A DNA stretch of 64,000 bases, taken from positions 39,785 through 103,784 of the forward strand of contig JANQRB010000154.1 of the NCBI GenBank assembly GCA_028284775.1, in the 5' to 3' direction. Shown here in pieces: positions 2,201 through 38,651 of this stretch. Both the position numbers and the translations under genes were made by a program. Origin of the DNA: Candidatus Kapaibacterium sp. Its GTDB lineage: Bacteria > Bacteroidota > Ignavibacteria > Kapaibacteriales > UBA7675. Position 1 is the first letter of the stretch. Each line of letters starts with the position of its first letter. The notes beneath the pieces are model-generated. The model searched no databases, was not told the origin of the DNA, and was given only the letters and a program-made list of their open reading frames with translations.

Positions 2201-4330
2201 ATGAAAAAGTACGAGAGTGACCGAATCCGCAATGTCGCCTTGATGGGACATTCGGGTTCGGGAAAAACAACCCTTGCAGAGACGATGCTGTTTGAAGCCG
2301 GTGCCCTGAGCCGCCGTGGAACCGTCGAGGAAAGCAACACCGTTTCCGATTATCACGACGTTGAAATGGATCGCGGTAACTCGGTCTTCGGCACCCTGCT
2401 GCATGCGGAATGGCGCGATCACAAAATCAATATCGTCGATACTCCTGGTTATGATGATTTCGTAGGCGAAGTGCTCTCGGCCTTGCGCGTTGTGGATACC
2501 GGCATAATGGTGCTGGCGGCTTCCGACGGCGTTCAGGTGGGAACCGAGCTCATCTGGCAGCAGACGGTTCAGCTAAATACCCCAATGATTTTTGCGGTTA
2601 ATAAACTCGATCACGATAAATCCAACTTTGAGCAGACGGTCGAGCAGGCCAAGGATCGATTCGGACGATCGGTCACGGTCGTTCAGTATCCGCTCAATGA
2701 AGGCGGCAGTTTCAATACGATCGTCGACGTTCTTAAGATGACGGTCTATAAGTTTTCCGCTGAAGGCGGAAAGCCGGAAAAGCTGCCGATCCCGGCGGAG
2801 GAAAAAGAAAAGGCCGAGCAACTCCATAATGAGCTGATCGAATCCATCGCCGAAAACGATGAAGGACTGATGGAGCTGTACTTTGAAAAAGGCACGCTCG
2901 ATGAAGACGAAATGCGAGCCGGGCTCAAAGCCGGCCTGATGAAACGTCAGATCTTTCCCCTATTCTGTGTCTGCGGGCGTCGCAATATGGGCAGTGGCCG
3001 ACTGATGGGATTCATCGACAATGTCGCGCCCGCACCGGCTGATATGCCGCCAAAAAAATCTGTCGACGGCAGCGAGTTGCCATGTGATTCCAATGGTCCG
3101 CTGGTGTTGTTTGTTTACAAGACGCTGTCCGAAGCTCACGTCGGCGAGATGGCCTATTTCCGGGTCAGCTCGGGCAAACTTCATTCGGGCATGGATCTGG
3201 TTAATCAGGCCAACGGCGGCTCGGAGCGGGTGACGCACTTTTTTGCCGTGAACGGCAAGAAGCGCCAGGAAATCGATGAATTATACGCCGGCGACCTGGG
3301 GGCTACGGTCAAACTTAAGGATACCCACGCCAATCAGACTCTCCATGAAAAAGGCAAGCCGATTGCGATGCCGGCTGTTGCCTATCCCTCGTCCAAAGTT
3401 CGCACGGCCATTCGCCCGGCCAATGCCAAAGAAGAAGAAAAGCTGGCCGCTTCCCTTCATCGCCTGCACAAAGAGGATCCGACACTGATTGTGGAGCACT
3501 CGCAGGAACTGCGGCAGACCATCCTTCACGGTCAGGGCGAATTGCATTTCACCGTCGTCAAATGGAGCCTGGAACACCGCTTCGGCGTTCAGGCCGAGTT
3601 TATCCCGCCGCGTATTTCTTATCGCGAAACGATTCAACGATCGACGAAAGGTCATTACAAACACAAAAAACAGACCGGCGGCGCGGGGCAGTACGGCGAA
3701 GTCTACATGGTGCTGGAACCCTATACGGAAGGTATGGCGGCGACGCCGGATGTCAACGTCCGCCATACGGACGAGATCGAGCTGGAATGGGGCGGCAAAC
3801 TGGTCTACCAGAACTGCATCGTCGGCGGGGTGATCGACCAGCGCTTTTTACCCGCCATTCTGAAGGGCATCATGGACAAAATGGAGAACGGACCGCTGAC
3901 CGGCTGTTATGTACGCGACATCAGGGTCAGTATTTACGACGGCAGTATGCACTCGGTGGATTCCAATGAAGCCGCTTTCAAGACCGCGGCCTTAATGGCC
4001 TTCCGCGATGCTTTTGCCGAAGGCGATCCGAAGATCCTCGAGCCCATTTTTGAGGTGGAAGTCATCGTACCCGACGAGTATGTGGGGGATGTAATGAGCG
4101 ACCTGCCATCCCGTCGCGCGACAATTATCGGTATCGACGCCGACGGACATTACCAGCGCATCAAGGCCAAAATGCCGCAGGCCGAGCTCGACGGTTATTC
4201 AACGGCTTTGCGCGCCATGACGCAGGGGCGCGCCACCTATTCCGGCAGCTATGACGGCTATGCGCCGGTTCCGCACGATCTGCAGGACAAATTGATCGCT
4301 GCGCACAAAAAGTCGGAGGAAGATGCCTAG
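2201..4330 (+). CDS. Elongation factor G family translational GTPase (EF-G paralog)
   Basis: The G1 motif is GHSGSGKTT, the G3 motif is DTPGYDDF, and the C-terminal EF-G domains IV/V are present over ~710 aa. The ATG at 2201 sits 8 nt after AGGAG at 2188-2192. An upstream ATG at 2195 is too close to that RBS. Confidence 0.85.
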   Translation: MKKYESDRIRNVALMGHSGSGKTTLAETMLFEAGALSRRGTVEESNTVSDYHDVEMDRGNSVFGTLLHAEWRDHKINIVDTPGYDDFVGEVLSALRVVDTGIMVLAASDGVQVGTELIWQQTVQLNTPMIFAVNKLDHDKSNFEQTVEQAKDRFGRSVTVVQYPLNEGGSFNTIVDVLKMTVYKFSAEGGKPEKLPIPAEEKEKAEQLHNELIESIAENDEGLMELYFEKGTLDEDEMRAGLKAGLMKRQIFPLFCVCGRRNMGSGRLMGFIDNVAPAPADMPPKKSVDGSELPCDSNGPLVLFVYKTLSEAHVGEMAYFRVSSGKLHSGMDLVNQANGGSERVTHFFAVNGKKRQEIDELYAGDLGATVKLKDTHANQTLHEKGKPIAMPAVAYPSSKVRTAIRPANAKEEEKLAASLHRLHKEDPTLIVEHSQELRQTILHGQGELHFTVVKWSLEHRFGVQAEFIPPRISYRETIQRSTKGHYKHKKQTGGAGQYGEVYMVLEPYTEGMAATPDVNVRHTDEIELEWGGKLVYQNCIVGGVIDQRFLPAILKGIMDKMENGPLTGCYVRDIRVSIYDGSMHSVDSNEAAFKTAALMAFRDAFAEGDPKILEPIFEVEVIVPDEYVGDVMSDLPSRRATIIGIDADGHYQRIKAKMPQAELDGYSTALRAMTQGRATYSGSYDGYAPVPHDLQDKLIAAHKKSEEDA

Positions 4331-19656: not shown

Positions 19657-20060
19657 GGACTATTCTATGCTGAGTTAGCGAATACCTTTGCGCACAAATA
19701 TAGCTGAATAAAGCGAATTCGAAAATGAGGCGTCGCGAAACATCCTGAAACGGACGAGCCTCTTCACCCATGTAAACGATGCAAACTTTCACTTGCTGCG
19801 CAGTGCACGTTCACTTGATAGGGTAAAGAGGCTCAGTGCCACCCATTTATACACTTTCTGATTGTCAATGTTTGTTTGATTTTGCGGCTTCTGTGCCCGC
19901 CGTAAAAACAACGAGGGCAATGTAATTGAATCCACTGCACAGGCCAATCTCAAGTGTACGGTTGACGGAATTCGATGTATGGCTTACAAGAATTCCATGA
20001 TCTTTGGCGAAAGAGCTGGCGTTCGATTCTGCAATCGACCGCCTCGTTTCTTCGGGAGAC

Positions 20061-21620
20061 TCAGACGATGGCGCGATTTGTCGACTCTTTGCTCGGCTGC
20101 AACTGACTTAAGCGGGCGAGTACCAGCTTCCACAGCACCTCAAAAGGGATCACTTCGGTGACTTCAAGCACATTGCGAAAATCGGTCTGTGGAGCAACAA
20201 GTCGCGTGTAATACGGCCGTGCCCTGGCTTCCGTTTTGCTGTAATCGAAGTCTTTTTCAATCATAATCCTCAGCATACGCAGGAAGCAATTCGTTCGGTA
20301 GTATTCTTCTTTGCGTAGATAGCGGCTTGTGTACTGTCGAATAGTTTCGGCGCGGTCCAGAATGCCGTTCAGATCATTGTTGTCAAGTAAAAACAGGATG
20401 TGAACAATGAGGATGGGAACATAGAATCCACTTTTGTCCTTGCTGAAAATCGGTACTTCATTGAGGAATTTGTACAAGTAAAAACGCCGACCGAAGGCTG
20501 TCAGTTTCTCGGAAATCTGTTCATCCGGATGATTGGTCAGAATGTAGCGGAGGTATGCTTCCAGTATTTTCCAGCGTTCGATGGTCTGAGGGTTGGCGTA
20601 TTCAAAGCGGCGGTGGCTTACGATCGTCGTAAAGATCTCGACAGCTTTGTGGTAGTTGTCGGTGTGCATCGAGAGCAGAAAGTAATACTCCTGGAAGAGA
20701 AACCAATTCGGCTGACCGACAACAAAATGATGAAGCCACTCATCAGCAAAGACGCGACCGTTGTCATAATCCCGCAGGTAGGTGTAGCTGACAAGTTTCC
20801 AGATAGCATTTTCGGCCAGGCGCGCTTTGTTGTAAAAATGCGGATGTTTCAGAAAATATGCTTCCTGTTCGTTGCACACTTCAAGCACACCTTCATAGTC
20901 CCGCGCAAGCTGCTTCAGAAGTGCTTTAACTCTGAAGTAGGTGAAATTCAACAGCCTGGTCTTGAACGTACTTCTCAGGCTGTCGATTTCCTTGCAATAT
21001 GTTTCCACCAGTGCCAGGAGCTCCGGTTTGTATGATTTAGACTTAGAGTATTCCAGAGCGATGAAATCGTAAAGGCCTTCGGCCTTCGTTTCCGCTTCCA
21101 ATGTTAATAATGCCTCCTGCAGCAAGCTCGAAGACTGTTCGAACTCAGTTCGGTCGCCGCTGAGACTGTAGTGCCGACGCGCCAGCCGGGCGCACTGAAA
21201 GACAACATCTGTTAGATCAAACTTTTGCGCTTTGACTAGAGTGCGCTTGATCAGGGAGATTGCGCTCATTCGCGCACCGAGCGCCACGAGCAGTCTTGCA
21301 CAGACAACGTTGCGGCCGCATTGGTGCATCGCTTCCGTTACGGCGCCGAACTTAGGCTGGCGAATTTCAACCGACATTAGCGACTGCAGCAGGATTTCCT
21401 TAAACCGTGATTTCAGAACAGCATAGCGATTGTCGGGAACTTCGCTCTGATAGATATGGCGAGCCGCGGCGCGATCATTGCTAAATCTGCCGGATGTAAT
21501 GCCGTCGTAGAGCTGTTCGAAGTTGGTGGATTCGTTTCCGCGACCTTGATTTTCGAATAGTCGTGACTTTTTGACCCCAACCCATGTAAGAATTTGGATC
21601 ATCTCACGTAATCTTCTCAT
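20061..21620 (-). CDS. Hypothetical all-alpha (TPR-like) protein, 519 aa, no recognisable catalytic or DNA-binding motif
   Basis: A long uninterrupted ORF with a good codon pattern. Its GC is lower than its neighbours. It sits immediately next to the AT-rich non-coding island. Confidence 0.55.
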   Translation of the reverse strand: MRRLREMIQILTWVGVKKSRLFENQGRGNESTNFEQLYDGITSGRFSNDRAAARHIYQSEVPDNRYAVLKSRFKEILLQSLMSVEIRQPKFGAVTEAMHQCGRNVVCARLLVALGARMSAISLIKRTLVKAQKFDLTDVVFQCARLARRHYSLSGDRTEFEQSSSLLQEALLTLEAETKAEGLYDFIALEYSKSKSYKPELLALVETYCKEIDSLRSTFKTRLLNFTYFRVKALLKQLARDYEGVLEVCNEQEAYFLKHPHFYNKARLAENAIWKLVSYTYLRDYDNGRVFADEWLHHFVVGQPNWFLFQEYYFLLSMHTDNYHKAVEIFTTIVSHRRFEYANPQTIERWKILEAYLRYILTNHPDEQISEKLTAFGRRFYLYKFLNEVPIFSKDKSGFYVPILIVHILFLLDNNDLNGILDRAETIRQYTSRYLRKEEYYRTNCFLRMLRIMIEKDFDYSKTEARARPYYTRLVAPQTDFRNVLEVTEVIPFEVLWKLVLARLSQLQPSKESTNRAIV

Positions 21621-22083
21621 AGGGTAAATCCAGCTTTTCAGAGATAATCAGTGATTCTTGAAGTAGTGCCGAGTAATTATGGCAATGATATATGCGAAAT
21701 AATTCGTGAAAATCTGATACGGTTTAAGCGCAAATAATACAATAGATTGTATTCAATGACAACTAAAAAGTAGTCGATTGTGTTTCATTTAGGGCAGCTA
21801 TTTAGAGATGGCAATCATGCAAACCACGTTTAGTCATATAAAGCGAATTGAGTTAAAATTTTTTATTGCATCTATGTAATAATTTGAGCATTTTCAGCAC
21901 AAGTATTGACAAGAAATCGCTGATAAGAGCCAGAGATCTTTGAAAATTGAAGCGCCGCTATTCAGAAAGCTGATAAAACTAATGTAATAATCAGTGTAAA
22001 TCTGATACGACAACTCGCATAACAAAAGGCTACATTGTTGGCAGATATCCTGAGTGTCGTATTATAAGCTGTCGAGGCGTACT

Positions 22084-22290
22084 ATGGAAATTGTTGTAGC
22101 AATTCTGATATATATCGCAGTGATTGTAAGTCCCGGAGAGTATCTGCAGCAAGAAATTGATATGTTCATCGATCAGCATCAGGTTGAAATCGATCACATT
22201 CAACAGGATCCCGCGCAAATGGATGTGGTGCACAATGAATTTCTTCCGCAAGTTGAATTTGTAATAATTGATGCAGATCAGGAATATTGA
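22084..22290 (+). CDS. Possible small membrane protein (68 aa): one N-terminal TM helix + acidic tail; weak call
   Basis: The translation is MEIVVAILIYIAVIVSPGEY...QEIDMFIDQHQVEIDH... A GAGG lies 8 nt upstream of the ATG. It sits inside the AT-rich island and an antisense ORF overlaps it, so coding status is uncertain. Confidence 0.2.
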   Translation: MEIVVAILIYIAVIVSPGEYLQQEIDMFIDQHQVEIDHIQQDPAQMDVVHNEFLPQVEFVIIDADQEY

Positions 22291-22353
22291 AGAGTTATTG
22301 ACCAACAAAAGTTCGTTCAACTTCTCTTATCGGCGATAGTTGAAAGCAAATTG

Positions 22354-22690
22354 CCAGAATACGACTGTGATAGCGGCGCCTACGTCAATTGCCACTGTAA
22401 TTCGTTCGAAAGCGAGTTGCAATAACGTAGGCGTTCTATCGATTTTTTTTGAAAATCTGAAAAGTGCCAAAATACGACTTGGATAGTGCTGTCTGTCTGA
22501 TCACTACTCTGAAATCCGGTCACCTCTTACTGTTAGATGGAGGCACTATCGTTTTTTTCGTGGTGAACGATAGAATTACGTTAGAATTAGAAGCGAAAAT
22601 ACGACTTGGATAGTGCTGTCTAACGCCTTGTCACTACTGTAGTCCCTAACCACCGGGCTATGTTCGGCGATAGACAGTCTATCTTTTTTA
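22354..22690 (+). repeat. Array of three tandem ~95-nt homologous structured units (candidate sRNA genes): conserved 5' box, variable core, long-range closing stem, U-tract
   Basis: The units are U1 22354-22450, U2 22467-22558 and U3 22594-22690. The 5' boxes are CCAGAATACGACTGTGATAGCGGCGCC, CCAAAATACGACTTGGATAGTGCTGTCT and CGAAAATACGACTTGGATAGTGCTGTCT. The 3' arms (ACGTAGGCGTTCTATC, GCACTATC, AGACAGTCTATC) are complementary to the GATAG... part of the 5' box. Each unit ends in T6-T8. Confidence 0.6.
22467..22558 (+). ncRNA. Best-defined unit (U2) of the tandem array: 8-bp closing stem GATAGTGC(22482-22489)/GCACTATC(22543-22550) + U7
   Basis: The helix is a perfect complement and is followed directly by GTTTTTTT. 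The fold is terminator-like and encloses a ~53-nt variable core. Confidence 0.35.
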
Positions 22691-23614
22691 ATATACCCCT
22701 AAAATCAACTTTCACAAAAAAAAGTTGCGAACGGGTATTTTGAACTTCCAATACTCGTCATCAGCGGACTGGTGCAGATTGTTATCTTCTCTAAGCTGAA
22801 CTTCGAAGCGGAATTTTGGTGGACTTTTGCCTCCACGCACTGCAAATCTGTTACCGTCGTTATGTTGACGCCAAGATTTCTCTCGTAAAGAGAGCTATCC
22901 GCATCTCGGATGCTCTGAATACCGGTAGCCTCTCAGACTAGAGTGGTTGTGTCCGCCAGTTGCATTTTCGCAAATACCTTGGCAACTATTTCTGAATCCA
23001 CGACTCGTGTGTGCCCGACTCGTGTGTGCCTGATTACTCCATCGGATTTCCGTCAATGCTTGCCGTCCGGAGCTATTTCTGAAGGGGAGGTTCCCGGGCA
23101 AAGATGCCAACCGGACATTTGGGACAATGTCGGTTTTGATAGAGAAATAGTAAGGTCATTAAGCTGATTGATTCGTCGTGGCGGGCACCGTCCTGTTATC
23201 GTTCCGACCGGTTTGCCGGTTGTGGAAGCTTTTGCACGAAATGTTACCGACCGGCACAAATTGTACTTGTTTTTCAGGCGGCAGTTTTGTTTTTTCGATG
23301 TGCGAGATTGGATGGGATGTTGACCGCAAACAAATTTAGATCAGCGACACCGTAAAGCCGCTAAGCTTTAGTAAAGCAATAGTTGTTGGTACCATAGATA
23401 TTGTTGTGCCACATTTGATTTCGGAGGGTAGCCGTCGATTTGGATGACGTGCTTGTAAGAGGTGCCGAGTGATAGAGAAACCGTTTCCAAGCCACCAACA
23501 GTAGATTCTGAATCCAAACTACTGGGTGTTGTATCACTTCCCTTGAAAAAGCGGAGTTACAAAAAGAATATTCGCAACAGCTTGGCGTCTAAGAAAGTGT
23601 GTTTGCTCCTGATG

Positions 23615-23654
23615 GCGGTGCGTCAAATTTTTTTGGCGTGCCGCTCTTTTTTTA
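23615..23654 (+). terminator. Orphan terminator-like hairpin (GCGGTGCGTC...GGCGTGCCGC + TCTTTTTTT) with no annotated gene upstream
   Basis: A 10-bp stem with three G-U pairs and an A3T7 loop, followed by a T-run. It lies inside the non-coding island. Confidence 0.3.
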
Positions 23655-23855
23655 ACTGCTGAATTACCACCTTTGAGCATCGATTAGCGTCTTACGACTC
23701 TCTTGAATTTTTTGTATCTTGGCGGTTTTTTCAACTAAAGCTCTTGCCATTTTTCCTTGGCATGATTCCGGGTGTTTGATGGTGTTTTTAAGACAGGCAA
23801 TGCCACAATCGAGCTTTGACAAGGTGTCCTCAAAATAGGAGTGTCGGCTGGATGT

Positions 23856-24905
23856 ATGTTTGAGATGATTCGCTTTCAGAACCCTGAGTATTTCTATGCT
23901 CTTGCCGCATTGCCCGGTATTGCAGTATTGTACGTCCTTGCGTCGCTCTGGCGCAAACGGGCTTTAAGTCGTTTTGGCGACCTTGCATTGCTGAGTAAGC
24001 TGCTTCCTGATGTCTCGCGCTGGCGGCCCATCCTAAAACTGGCTCTTGCTCTCAGTGCCACCTTGTTGCTGGTTCTGGGAATTGTCAACCCTCAGATCGG
24101 CACCAAACTTGAGGAAGTAAAACGCGAAGGTGTTGATATCATCATTGCGCTCGATGTTTCGAACAGTATGCGGGCCGAGGATATTACGCCCGAACGATTG
24201 CAGCGCGCGAAGGGTGCCATAGCCCGCCTGATCGATCGTCTGCGCAACGATCGTATCGGCTTGATTGTTTTCGCCGGTGAGGCCTTTGTCATGCTACCAT
24301 TGACCGCCGACTATGCCGCCGCCAAGCTCTTCCTTTCTTCCGTGGACACTGACATCGTTTCCAAGCAGGGGACGGCAATTGGCGCTTCGATAAAACTGGC
24401 GCGAGATGCATTTGAGTCGGAAGAGACTAAATTCAAGGCACTAATTATTATTACCGACGGTGAAAATCATGAAGACGATGCAGTCTCCGAAGCGGCGGAG
24501 GCTCATAAAGAAGGTGTCGTCATTCACGCTATTGGAATGGGTTCACCCGAAGGCGTGCCGATCCCACTCTACCTCAATGGCTCGCGGCGCGGATACCGCA
24601 AAGATCGCCAGGGCAACGTTATTGTAACGAAACTAAACGAAGCAATCCTGCGTCAGATTGCGGGCGCTGCTAATGGTACCTACGTGCGGGCAAGCAGCTC
24701 AGACGCCGGTCTCGACACAATACTTGACAAAATCAACACCATGGAGAAAAAGGAATTCGGCACGCGCGAATATTCTGATTTCGAAGACCGCTTCCAATGG
24801 TTTTTGATGGCTGCCTTCATTCTGTTGTTGCTGGAATTCCTGATAAGCCAACGCCGCAGCAAGTGGCTGGATGGTGTGACTCTCTTTAAAGGAGATGCGC
24901 AATGA
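23856..24905 (+). CDS. batA: BatA/BatB-like von Willebrand factor A (vWA) domain protein, aerotolerance-operon type
   Basis: MFEMIRFQNPEYFYALAALPGIAVLYVLASLWRKR is a BatA-type N-terminal TM region. The vWA MIDAS motif is DVSNSM, followed by ...IIITDGENHEDD... Confidence 0.8.
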   Translation: MFEMIRFQNPEYFYALAALPGIAVLYVLASLWRKRALSRFGDLALLSKLLPDVSRWRPILKLALALSATLLLVLGIVNPQIGTKLEEVKREGVDIIIALDVSNSMRAEDITPERLQRAKGAIARLIDRLRNDRIGLIVFAGEAFVMLPLTADYAAAKLFLSSVDTDIVSKQGTAIGASIKLARDAFESEETKFKALIIITDGENHEDDAVSEAAEAHKEGVVIHAIGMGSPEGVPIPLYLNGSRRGYRKDRQGNVIVTKLNEAILRQIAGAANGTYVRASSSDAGLDTILDKINTMEKKEFGTREYSDFEDRFQWFLMAAFILLLLEFLISQRRSKWLDGVTLFKGDAQ

Positions 24906-32826: not shown

Positions 32827-33070
32827 GAAAGCGTCTCCGCTAGAATGACATGGTTATCGTAAAACCGACAAAACTACAGAATGTTTGCAAATATTTGAAG
32901 CTCATAATTTGAGTACTGATCGCTTTGAAGGCCTGGTTTTCAGCTTGTTTCCGCATTTGGCAGCCATTCGGGACGATTGTTTCGCGCTTCAAATATCACT
33001 AATTTGACAATTCAATTCGGAGGCATTCCTGCTGCCGGCAAAGGCCGATGCGCCGCAACCACCATAAAGC

Positions 33071-35367: not shown

Positions 35368-36112
35368 ATGCTTGATTCAAGTATACAAAGAATGCCGGGT
35401 AAAGTCAACAGGATTCTCTGTCGCAGACGCAAAAACTGCGCTGAAGTCAAAAGCATTCATTCTTGTAAAATGCCTGTAACCTTCCAGTTGACTTTGTGTT
35501 ATAAGCCCGTGCCTCGCAAGTGAGGACCTGAAATCAAACAGATAGATTTGATTTTGCCTTGAGGACGACGGCGACATAAACCTGCGCCGAATGCTCAAGC
35601 ACAGATGTTAACACGCGAGTGATGGGCCGATCACATGCTCACGTGACTGCATTCGGGATGATGCACTCTCAGACGGCCTACAAAAAGTTTAATTAACAGT
35701 AAGCGAATCGCATCGGATCGAGTTCAATGAATTGATCTCGGCGGATAACGCTTGTCGTGTCCGTACATGTGAAAATTGAGGGCATTTACTTTCCGGGTAA
35801 ATCCGAGATAGGGGGAAGGCGGGCACATAGGTGTTTTTCCTATGGGTGGCGCGCATTGAGGGTATGTAATTATCCCGCCTTTTCCCCTATTCTCGTTTCT
35901 CTTATATCGGCTGCCATCCTCTCTCACCAGCAGATTCTTCTTCCGTCAACTTCTTCAGTTTCATTTGTCTCAGTGCATGCCTGCCGTCGCAGGACCGGCG
36001 CGAGCCCTTTGTTGCCATCTGATAGACAATTTCGACTGCGTCATAGTCGTCAGCGCTCACGCCCGGACATTTTATCTTTTCCGGTATTTTTGCATTATGG
36101 ACACGGCAAAGA

Positions 36113-36535
36113 ATGGCTCACCAATTTGAGGTCCTCGAGCATACAGCTGACGTACGCCTGAAGGTCCGTGCCGACTGCCTGGAAGAACTGTTTGCCGGCG
36201 CCTTAAGGGGAATGTGCCACCTTATTCAAGAAGGAGGATGCGAGAAGGCAGCCGATTCCTCGCTCTGCGAAGAGTTCAGTATCAGCTCTGTTGACCATGC
36301 TGCTTTGCTGGTAGACTTCTTGTCTAAGGTGCTGGTACTGATTTCAACCAACTGCGCTTTATACTGCGATGTTACTATTCACGAGTTGTCGGGCACTTTT
36401 TTACGGGTTAGTGTCAAAGGCTTTGTTACCGAGAGCGATTTTGATGAAGATATTAAGGCTGTCACATACCACGAAAATGCCGTTATTCGGGCTGAAAACG
36501 GCGATTATATAAGCACCATCGTTTTTGATATATAA
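36113..36535 (+). CDS. Archease (RtcB cofactor)
   Basis: MAHQFEVLEHTADVRLKVRA... is the archease N-terminal signature. The protein is 140 aa. Confidence 0.85.
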   Translation: MAHQFEVLEHTADVRLKVRADCLEELFAGALRGMCHLIQEGGCEKAADSSLCEEFSISSVDHAALLVDFLSKVLVLISTNCALYCDVTIHELSGTFLRVSVKGFVTESDFDEDIKAVTYHENAVIRAENGDYISTIVFDI

Positions 36536-37202
36536 CAAGGCAGCCCAAATTCGGCCGAAAATGGCGGTAAAAGCGATGTTACCGGCAAGGGAATATTGGT
36601 ATTGCTTACTGCATTGATCAGGCTGTATGTTTGTCGGTGAGAATCCGGAAGCGCAATTAATCGCAGTACCTAAGCAATCTCCGGTCAGGTGTTTCAGGGT
36701 TCTCGTAAATGTTGCCGCTCGCAGAGCGGAGTGCCATAAGAACATTTTTCAGGTGGCGCATCGACACAGGCAAAGTGTCAAAACCGTAAAGGGAGCCCCC
36801 CTCAATAGGGTGGCTGAGGGGGACTCTCTTGCGGTTGTTTATCCAGGCTATCTCAGTCGTATTCTGGCAGCACCGGTAGCCGATTCGCACAAGTAAAAAT
36901 TGCTGTTTGTTTTTTCACATGGCTGTCTTTGGTTACTCGCATAGTGAATACAACCTTCGAAAGCCATGAGCTGCTCACTTTTCGCGCAGCGAAAGAGATC
37001 GCCTGACTGACGACCTCTAGAGGGTCAGAGGTTGAAAGTAGCTCCTACGACTTGTTCGCTCCAGGGACAAGACGGAAAGGAGTTGCTTCCTTTTAAAGCA
37101 GCATATCGTATTTTCTCCTTCGTTCGCATCCTGTTTTTGCGTTTTCAATTAACACGACGTCATTTTTTTGAGTCTTCGCAAACAGCCAAGCAGCAAACTA
37201 CT

Positions 37203-38651
37203 ATGTCCATTAAAGATATTATTCGGGAGCAGACTCCCTGGAGCTGGGAGATCCCGCGTTCATACAACGACGCTATGGCTGTGCCTGCGCTGGTTTTCGC
37301 CGATGCGGCGATGCTCCGCGATGTCATGAGCGACCGTTCGCTTGAACAATTGGTGAACGTTGCCTCCCTGCCTGGGATTCTGCGCGCGGCGATGGTGATG
37401 CCTGATGTCCATGAAGGCTATGGCTTCCCCATTGGCGGTATTGCGGCTACCGAATACCCGCATGGCGCCATTTCACCCGGTGGCATCGGCTACGACATCA
37501 ACTGCGGTGTCCGCCTGCTGACAACCGAGTTTCTGTACACCGACCTCAGCGACAAGTTTCGCAAGCTGGCCGAGGAGCTGAACCGACAGATCCCCTCCGG
37601 CGTCGGAAGGGGCGGCAGCCTGCGACTGTCGCAATCGGAGTTGGACAGGGTGCTGAACGAGGGGGCGCCCTATCTGATTGCCCAGGGCTACGGCTCGCCG
37701 CGTGACGCCCATTTTACCGAATCGGGCGGCTGCCTGGACTGGGCGGACGCCAATCAAGTGTCGGAAGATGCGCGCCGGCGCGGATTCAACCAGGTGGGAA
37801 CCATGGGCAGCGGTAATCATTTCGTGGAGATCGACCGCGTCGATTCGATTTTCGATGCCGATACCGCCGACCGCTTCGGGCTGCGTATGAATCAGGTTGT
37901 TGTGTTGATTCACACCGGCTCGCGCGGCCTCGGTCATCAGGTGGCCACCGATTACATCCGGCTTCTGATGTCGGCGATGCCGAAGTACGACATCCACCTG
38001 CCGGATCGCGAGCTGGCCTGCGTTCCTTTGTCATCACCGGAGGGCAGCGACTATTTCAAAGCGATGGCCGCTGCCGCTAATTTTGCATGGGCCAACCGTC
38101 AGCTGATTACTCATAGAGTGCGCACCGCCTTTGCCAATGTATTGGGGACAAAACGCAGCGGACAGATAGAGGTACTCTATGATGTGGCCCATAATATTGC
38201 CAAGATTGAAGAGCATGAAGTGGATGGCAGACGCAAACAGGTCATCGTGCATCGCAAAGGCGCTACCCGCGCCTTTGGTCCCGGAAATCCCGAAGTCGTA
38301 GAGGAATATCGCAATGAGGGGCAGCCGGTGTTGATTCCCGGCAGTATGGGGACCGCCTCATTCGTATTGGCCGGCACTGAAAAGAGCATGCAGTACAGCT
38401 TCGGCTCGACCTGTCATGGCGCGGGACGCCGTATGTCGCGGACGAGGGCCCGGAAAGAAGTCAGGGCCAGCGAGCTTATCCAGAAGCTGGCGAGCAAGGG
38501 AATTCATGTGCAGGCGGGCTCGAAACGTGGACTTACGGAAGAGGCGCCGTTGGCGTATAAAGATGTCAATGCCGTCGTCGACATCGTGCATGATGCCGGA
38601 ATTGCCCGTAAGATTGCCCGTCTGCGCCCCGTTGCGGTGGTAAAGGGCTAA
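37203..38651 (+). CDS. rtcB: RNA-splicing ligase RtcB
   Basis: The metal-binding motifs are DINCGVR, ...GSGNHF... and ...HNIAKIEEH... The ORF track starts at 37032, but the ATG at 37203 (MSIKDIIREQTPW...) fits the length of RtcB homologs. Confidence 0.9.
   Translation: MSIKDIIREQTPWSWEIPRSYNDAMAVPALVFADAAMLRDVMSDRSLEQLVNVASLPGILRAAMVMPDVHEGYGFPIGGIAATEYPHGAISPGGIGYDINCGVRLLTTEFLYTDLSDKFRKLAEELNRQIPSGVGRGGSLRLSQSELDRVLNEGAPYLIAQGYGSPRDAHFTESGGCLDWADANQVSEDARRRGFNQVGTMGSGNHFVEIDRVDSIFDADTADRFGLRMNQVVVLIHTGSRGLGHQVATDYIRLLMSAMPKYDIHLPDRELACVPLSSPEGSDYFKAMAAAANFAWANRQLITHRVRTAFANVLGTKRSGQIEVLYDVAHNIAKIEEHEVDGRRKQVIVHRKGATRAFGPGNPEVVEEYRNEGQPVLIPGSMGTASFVLAGTEKSMQYSFGSTCHGAGRRMSRTRARKEVRASELIQKLASKGIHVQAGSKRGLTEEAPLAYKDVNAVVDIVHDAGIARKIARLRPVAVVKG

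Follow-up and report, generated by a model that had tools for sequence, protein, structure and literature searches.

Three tandem structured units with a shared 5' box form a candidate array of sibling small-RNA genes in a Kapaibacterium genome

Sibling small RNAs, in the generic sense of at least two paralogous non-coding genes that share sequence and structure and carry their own terminators, are exemplified by OmrA/OmrB, PrrF1/PrrF2 and LhrC1-4. To our knowledge, bacteria of the Bacteroidota group have neither Hfq nor ProQ, and riboregulation in this group outside the gut Bacteroides is almost unexplored. Two described systems stand closest to the locus considered here. NmsRA and NmsRB of Neisseria are sibling small RNAs encoded in tandem (PMC5362039). 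The FopS/GibS RNAs of Bacteroides thetaiotaomicron consist of a conserved single-stranded 5' seed, a variable part and a Rho-independent terminator hairpin, and the FopS genes are found at 14 dispersed loci with canonical TAnnTTTG promoters (PMC11697453).

Our analysis of a 64,000-nt stretch of chromosomal DNA (the window, which includes a T9SS sorting domain and Bat/MoxR operons) indicates a plus-strand array of three paralogous units, U1 (22352-22450), U2 (22465-22558) and U3 (22592-22689), each with shared sequence and structure and a terminator-like end of its own. We suggest that these are three sibling small-RNA genes with the box as 5' seed, a reading to which we assign a probability of roughly 0.55; they are most likely regulators of an ordinary kind that make up a new and narrowly distributed family. 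The results support that the units are neither chance nor coding and that no known RNA family matches them. From 5' to 3' the sequence of each unit reads as a 22-nt box (TGCCARAATACGACTKKGATAG), an irregular hairpin and a run of six to eight T, and the features are as follows.

22352-22373, plus strand: U1 box, TGCCAGAATACGACTGTGATAG, an exact pattern match and member of repeat family D1, identical in the related loci L008, L019 and L021
22369-22440, plus strand: U1 hairpin of 16 bp with bulged C22374, from folding and pair table
22443-22450, plus strand: U1 T8 tract in the sequence, the presumed termination site (T7 in L008)
22465-22486, plus strand: U2 box, TGCCAAAATACGACTTGGATAG, a pattern match and member of repeat family D1
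22482-22550, plus strand: U2 hairpin of 19 bp, GATAGTGCT.GTCTGTCTGAT / GTTAGATGGAGGCACTATC, from folding and pair table
22552-22558, plus strand: U2 T7 tract, from the sequence
22592-22613, plus strand: U3 box, AGCGAAAATACGACTTGGATAG, a pattern match and member of repeat family D1; its orthologue is TGCCAAAATACGACTTGGATAG
22609-22683, plus strand: U3 hairpin, its 17 bp split into three segments, GATAG.GCTGTCTA.CGCC / GGCG.TAGACAGTCTATC, from folding and pair table
22684-22689, plus strand: U3 T6 tract in the sequence (T7 in L008)

How does this array compare with the described systems? Like the FopS/GibS RNAs, it comes from the same broad phylum and would be a multi-copy family with a conserved unpaired 5' stretch and a variable terminator hairpin, and in both, intergenic regions or 3' UTRs are the source of some members. 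The units, however, stand in tandem and have no TAnnTTTG (sigma-ABfr) promoter, whereas the FopS genes are dispersed; moreover the 5' block of the units runs into the closing helix, and this helix closes the entire RNA. They also do not match FopS in Rfam, assuming that the deposited FopS model is in Rfam 15. With tandem siblings of the NmsRA/NmsRB type the array shares adjacent duplicates within one intergenic region, own terminators, conserved ends and a divergent middle, and we presume for U1-U3 the overlapping regulons of such siblings. The organisms, however, are unrelated and no sequence is held in common, and those siblings have mapped transcripts and established regulators and targets, whereas the RNAs of U1-U3 are predicted. 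What is unusual here is the whole-molecule closing helix that would double as terminator, the sharp boundaries of the box, and a copy of the box beside rtcB.

The box itself is well defined. Its copies start at 22352, 22465 and 22592, with AGCG in U3 where the others have TGCC, and the repeat finder returns a single family (D1) of three 29-nt copies at 22353, 22466 and 22593, spaced by 113 and 127 nt and 76-97% identical to the reference copy. A first-pass annotation had described three tandem units at these positions with a common 5' box; sequence and repeat finder bear out both, and for the box so does the count, since hits with at most three mismatches number six in the window against 1.13 expected, a number reached in 0 of 100 shuffles. 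The string AATACGACTKKGATAG is present in three exact copies and in one copy with a single mismatch at 36848-36863 on the minus strand. The U1 box differs from those of U2 and U3 at three positions, and the sharing among the three paralogues is limited to about 22-29 nt. An internal YCAC motif that had also been reported is weak evidence, being short and expected by chance about 0.45 times per core.

Every unit contains a hairpin closed by GATAG.../...CTATC, with T8, T7 and T6 (in U1, U2 and U3) beginning 0-2 nt after it. Folding gives -33.2 (z = -4.3), -22.6 (z = -2.4) and -30.4 kcal/mol (z = -3.9) for U1, U2 and U3, and the closing helices comprise 16, 19 and 17 bp, interrupted by a single 1-nt bulge after base pair 5 or 9; the box is predicted to be unpaired in all folds. 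The arms of U1 are GATAGCGGCGCCTACGT on the 5' side (22369-22385) and ACGTAGGCGTTCTATC on the 3' side (22425-22440), and folding places a second stem and an 8-bp hairpin with a CGAA tetraloop at its apex. U2 and U3 have an identical 14-nt 5' arm and different 3' arms, which pair in different registers; the apical region of U2 is mostly unstructured and holds UCACUACU, and the interior of U3 holds the conserved GUCACUACUG and CCACCGGGC. Folding and pair tables thus agree with the earlier proposal that the GATAG part of the box is complementary to the 3' end of the unit and that the T-tract follows directly. The T-runs lie 3' of the hairpins on the plus strand only, and the minus-strand folds are not better, that of U2 being much worse. 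We reject a minus-strand reading because there A-runs precede the hairpins and no T-runs come after them.

G+C-containing stems of 16-19 bp with T6-T8 0-2 nt further on have the form of intrinsic terminators. The stems, however, enclose 30-45 nt, far above typical terminator loops, and because this enclosed region is atypically large a consensus terminator scan did not call U1-U3. Both the atypical size and the miss by the scan would count against the sibling-RNA reading.

If that reading is correct, each putative RNA would end at its own intrinsic terminator, whose stem would be the helix closing the whole RNA (GAUAG.../...CUAUC, U6-8). The start that we favour, at the left edge of the box or just upstream, would give an RNA of about 90-95 nt, and its single-stranded 5' end of about 15 nt, (UG)CCARAAUACGACUKK, would serve as a common base-pairing seed. 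A stable hairpin body specific to each paralogue would protect the RNA and display unpaired motifs, namely UCACUACU (in U2 and U3) and CCAC loops, and the three RNAs would act in trans on a common pool of mRNAs, with specificities that differ in part. That the units are transcribed, where their 5' ends lie, that they work in trans and what they might target are all things that we infer. On folds, terminator geometry and conservation taken together, an array of independently terminated small RNAs, as had been proposed, is still the best reading.

The clearest indication that the units are maintained comes from a second lineage. The exact locus has one public copy, a Logan contig. Three related loci, L008, L019 and L021 (the last found via a neighbouring protein), are nearly identical to one another and have the gene order 515-aa protein, small gene, array, gap of about 1 kb, BatA; in L008 and L019 two boxes lie 257 nt apart. 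Identity to the window counterpart is 48% for the 515-aa protein and 49% for the small one. Sensitive blastn of window positions 21400-24000 against this lineage gave four alignable islands only: U1 (80% over 103 nt, E 9e-17), U3 (79% over 99 nt, E 1.6e-13 to 4.5e-14, at 2627-2718 of L008), the box of U2 (36 nt), and a further element, S4, that has no box. The check that had been called for, conservation of box and closing helix in relatives, is therefore positive for U1 and U3 in this lineage. Since the array is syntenic in both lineages, the order U1-U2-U3 predates their split, and since islands of about 80% identity stand in otherwise unalignable DNA next to proteins of 48-49% identity, the comparison argues that U1 and U3 are under purifying selection.

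U1 and its orthologue agree throughout the first 34 nt and the last 20 nt save for the bulged base, and the apex has changed; U3 retains its box, both arms, GUCACUACUG and CCACCGGGC. The U2 orthologue (L008 2478-2600) keeps only CGACTTGGATAGTGCT.TCTGT, has lost the AATA of the box, closes via a different helix and folds differently. Window positions 22691-23583 are not conserved with the L008 lineage. Some features of these loci are worth recording in their own right. L019 (CAYULF010000002.1) is titled 'uncultured Hyphomicrobiales bacterium'; its Bat genes are typical of the Bacteroidota group, and mislabelling of this bin is probable. Between the small gene and the U1 orthologue, L008 has an extra hairpin (2287-2335), absent from the window, with the box-like GCGACTTGGCAGTG in its loop and TTTT after it. 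Also absent from the window are GTACG(N1-3)CGTAC palindromes at 2485, 2561 and 3500 of L008, which flank the U2 orthologue and precede that of S4.

Is the pairing itself, rather than the sequence, what is conserved? We aligned five distinct sequences from two lineages on a common helix of 13 pairs. In this alignment 95.1% of the closing-helix cells are paired, compared with 31-51% for slid partners, and in four pairs both partners have changed. Covariation scores 0.285, compared with 0.179 for shuffles, of which 4 in 500 score as high; unstructured related sequences are known to pass such controls in 5-25% of cases. The compensatory change claimed at first reading stands among the paralogues, whose helices differ in sequence yet stay paired; it does not extend to the orthologue pairs, which show almost none. 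There both arms are simply conserved, and hence the orthologue comparison is silent on pairing. As only three independent paralogues, five sequences and two lineages contribute, these data lend modest support to selection on the closing helix.

The array lies in 1.55 kb that contain no credible ORF, between a 68-aa gene and BatA (plus strand, start 23841/23865).

22084-22290, plus strand: conserved 68-aa gene, called as a gene in L002 and 49% identical to its L021 orthologue

From 22691 to the BatA start at 23841/23865 the ORF list holds no ORF of more than 74 aa, in agreement with the earlier statement that no gene follows for over 1 kb. The ORFs that overlap the units are of 43-49 aa, begin with TTG or GTG and occur on both strands, and none has a counterpart of the same extent in the related locus, which upholds the view that no ORF is associated with the units. 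The 68-aa protein has an N-terminal hydrophobic helix and an acidic tail, matches nothing in Pfam and has weaker relatives in L022 and L023. Upstream and divergent lies the gene of a 519-aa protein without Pfam domains, beyond which come a ferritin, a CHAT-TPR protein and a Y_Y_Y histidine kinase. The named relatives of the window's UvrA, at 58-63% identity, are from Bacteroidota, Ignavibacteria and Kapabacteria; closer relatives of it, at 70-72%, are present only on short Logan contigs. A scan of 40 ORFs found no reverse transcriptase, transposase, integrase, Cas, Ro (TROVE) or phage polymerase domain. As minor observations, the start of the 68-aa gene (22079-22109) is 74% similar to 23389-23419 in the ORF-free region, which may be a decayed duplicate of the gene, and the ferritin, MoxR and archease starts each have a TAnnTTTG 20-45 nt before them (about 19697-19704, minus strand; 32869-32876, minus strand; 36085-36092, plus strand).

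Searches for further members of the family returned little. No Rfam 15 covariance model matches anywhere in the window at the gathering threshold, and at E<=10 nothing lies over the units in 21600-23900; the check for novelty that had been proposed thus finds no Rfam family that matches the units. We scanned 185,579 species genomes with a 20-nt box and obtained 18 loci, among which L008 and L019 are the only true members. The other 16 have a single box and were treated as chance (about 35 are expected); two of them, L011 and L017, were inspected, and the L017 box falls inside a cation/proton antiporter gene. A covariance model of the box units (R1) finds only U1-U3 in the window and no further member in 16 loci searched, and a descriptor scan (CGACT, closing helix, T-run) likewise adds none. 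In the L008 and L019 assemblies, scanned as whole genomes, nothing beyond the two array copies turned up. Two metagenome scans for box, CTATC and T-run were negative: the first returned 0 hits, and the 4 hits of the second lack a closing helix. A scan of viral contigs gave one chance hit, which has no hairpin. L022-L025, which encode homologues of the 519-aa protein at 37-39% identity, lack a box and leave no space for an array. With no other members in whole-collection scans the family is lineage-restricted, and it appears to be confined to one sparsely sampled lineage, which limits its general importance. Nevertheless, a compact sibling-RNA array with clear purifying selection, a sharply delimited 5' element and an unusual closing helix that would serve as terminator could be an entry point to how seeds or shared promoters organise small-RNA families in the phylum.

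In favour of a seed we count that the ACGACT of the box is invariant. CGACTTG survives in degenerate copies that have no upstream CARAAT, namely the U2 orthologue (L008 2492-2511) and the extra hairpin at L008 2287-2335, and because CGACTTG outlasts the hexamer there, the core of the box looks more like an RNA-level element than a -10 hexamer. Against a seed counts the finding that no TAnnTTTG stands at a fixed distance upstream of the boxes; by eye, the roughly 40 nt before each contain only variants with one or two mismatches, at varying distances. Near 43 start codons in the window, complements of the box and core motifs have energies no better than those of shuffled seeds. The first-pass annotation had taken all 28 nt of the box to be RNA. 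Taken by itself, the sequence would fit equally well a box that is the 5' end of the RNA and one made up mostly of promoter or operator, in which case the RNA would begin at GATAG.

The second of these, that the box works at the level of DNA as a -35-independent promoter and operator for the same three small-RNA genes, we consider possible but doubtful. TGcCAnAAT would then work much like an extended -10, and ACGACT would be a discriminator or the site of a regulator; the start would fall on the K before GATAG, the product would be a blunt-ended hairpin RNA of about 75-80 nt with a U tail and no 5' seed, and unrelated RNAs, one of them antisense in the archease-rtcB spacer, would come under joint control of the box. 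Such a promoter would account for why conservation begins exactly at TG, why the box varies only at position 3 of the hexamer (A/G) and at the two would-be start bases, and why the closing helix starts 7-8 nt past the hexamer, where transcription would be expected to begin; upstream, no -35 or -33 element recurs consistently, and the fourth box (U4) precedes a completely different sequence. TGCCAnAAT is also present eight times in the window where about two are expected, five of them intergenic, with one 64 nt upstream of the 519-aa gene and one about 60 nt upstream of the BatA start, and it stands upstream of genes in L023 as well, although the count was made post hoc in a single 64-kb window. 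The housekeeping promoters of the window, on the other hand, are of the Bacteroidota TAnnTTTG kind and not TATAAT-like, six invariant bases (ACGACT) between hexamer and start would be unusual for a promoter, and the degenerate copies retain CGACTTG rather than the hexamer. Apart from the boxes, TGCCAnAAT is found at 21676-21684 (minus strand) and 23801-23809 (plus strand), and may represent a second promoter type.

The box has a fourth copy elsewhere in the window, which the first-pass annotation had missed, as it had S4 and the conserved 68-aa gene.

36848-36869, minus strand: fourth box copy (box only), TGCCAGAATACGACTGAGATAG, 21/22 identical to the U1 box

This copy sits in the 667-nt spacer between archease (36113-36535, plus strand) and rtcB (37203-38651, plus strand). 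To its 3' side on the minus strand is an unrelated strong hairpin (about 36793-36826) with no CTATC closure; covariance model R1 scores the copy at 24 bits, the level of the box alone, and over the spacer Rfam at E<=10 gives noise hits only. Sequence of this kind could mark a box-driven antisense transcript or a target site: an RNA from the plus strand of the spacer would be complementary to the U1 box, and it is the only long complement found. In the orthologous spacer of L030, which is from the same sample as L021, CCAAAAGTCGACTTG (about 2275-2296, minus strand) matches the U2/U3-type box at 13 of 15 positions; with the post hoc choice allowed for, we estimate the chance of such a match at about 1%, which is suggestive only. 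One could therefore imagine that the box is an address to the RNA-repair operon, so that either the small RNAs pair at the spacer or an antisense RNA driven by the box controls rtcB. We think this unlikely; if true, it would amount to a dedicated riboregulator of RtcB in Bacteroidota.

Less probable still is that the units are no regulators at all and form a stack of terminators, or a 3' UTR, that ends the 68-aa mRNA and insulates the bat operon. The 68-aa gene ends 61 nt upstream of the U1 box with no terminator between its stop (22290) and U1, so that U1 could also end the 68-aa mRNA, and U1-U3 and S4 are all hairpins with T-runs on the strand of that gene. But a terminator requires no conserved 22-nt box ahead of its stem and no conserved motifs inside it, about 80% identity is not usual for them beside proteins of 48-49%, and stems that enclose 30-45 nt would be a poor terminator design. 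It is very improbable that the units are relics of a MITE-like mobile element or palindromic DNA sites for a protein or recombinase: GATAG.../...CTATC inverted repeats do bound each unit and the window has another box copy, but the units are single-copy and in the same syntenic position and order in two lineages, the L008 and L019 genome scans yielded just the two array copies, no transposase, integrase or reverse transcriptase is encoded by the 40 ORFs scanned, each unit has inverted repeats of its own sequence, and the T-runs are strand-specific.

A number of known elements were also considered and rejected. Y RNA and YrlA are alike in being RNAs of about 100 nt whose 5' and 3' ends pair in a long stem with bulges, after which comes a U tract, and a copy of the box does lie near rtcB/archease; the array itself, however, is 14 kb from rtcB, and there is no Rfam match at E<=10, no TROVE gene in the ORFs scanned and no tRNA-like module. 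The phage T7 class III promoter is TAATACGACTCACTATAG, which the box recalls through AATACGACT and a downstream ATAG (22358-22373 and paralogues). The spacing is one base shorter, the window has no single-subunit RNA polymerase, and GATAG must be transcribed to pair with CTATC; we treat the resemblance as coincidence. On reading the sequence we saw no GG-N10-GC of a sigma-54 promoter and no fixed -35 of an ECF-type promoter. The first-pass annotation had set aside CRISPR, type III TA ToxI and retrons, in each case correctly: three copies of 76-97% identity spaced by 113 and 127 nt, with no cas domains in the ORFs scanned, do not make a CRISPR; TRF finds no tandem array of about 36 nt and the ORF list shows no ORF for 1.1 kb downstream, as a ToxI locus would need; and for a retron msr-msd, there is no RT domain in the 40 ORFs and no ORF adjoining the units. 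Integron attC sites are rejected for lack of GTTRRRY cores and an integrase, and a MITE or IS remnant because dispersed near-identical copies are lacking, the model search of the window giving U1-U3 only.

Other elements surround the array. The fourth alignable island lies between it and the bat operon.

23584-23660, plus strand: S4, a conserved element without box, an 85% island against L008/L019/L021, called terminator-like and folded

Positions 23584-23653 are 85% identical to L008 3537-3603. S4 consists of an unpaired stretch of about 30 nt (GGCGTCT.AG.AAGTGTGTTTGCTCCTGAT), a 14-bp hairpin GGCGGTGCGTCAAA/TTTGGCGTGCCGC and T7; it stands about 210 nt upstream of the BatA start in both lineages, matches no Rfam family, and could be either a separate small RNA or a leader or attenuator of the bat operon.

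Upstream of the array, fragments had been taken for older, decayed units. The AAATCTGATACG fragments at 21710 and 21998 are real, but they belong to a separate 24-nt direct repeat (D2), AATAAT..GTG.AAATCTGATACG, at 21698-21721 and 21986-22009 (plus strand, 88% identical), and are not units. D2 lies in the divergent promoter region of the 519-aa and 68-aa genes and has no hairpin or T-run; a third, weak copy makes up the spacer ahead of the U2 box, and a partial counterpart (TGATACG) is found upstream of the small gene in L008. The repeat may be a regulator site. Finally, the 1.1 kb without ORFs contain, at 23001-23030 on the plus strand, a perfect tandem duplication of the 15-mer CGACTCGTGTGTGCC, which starts with the CGACT of the box core.
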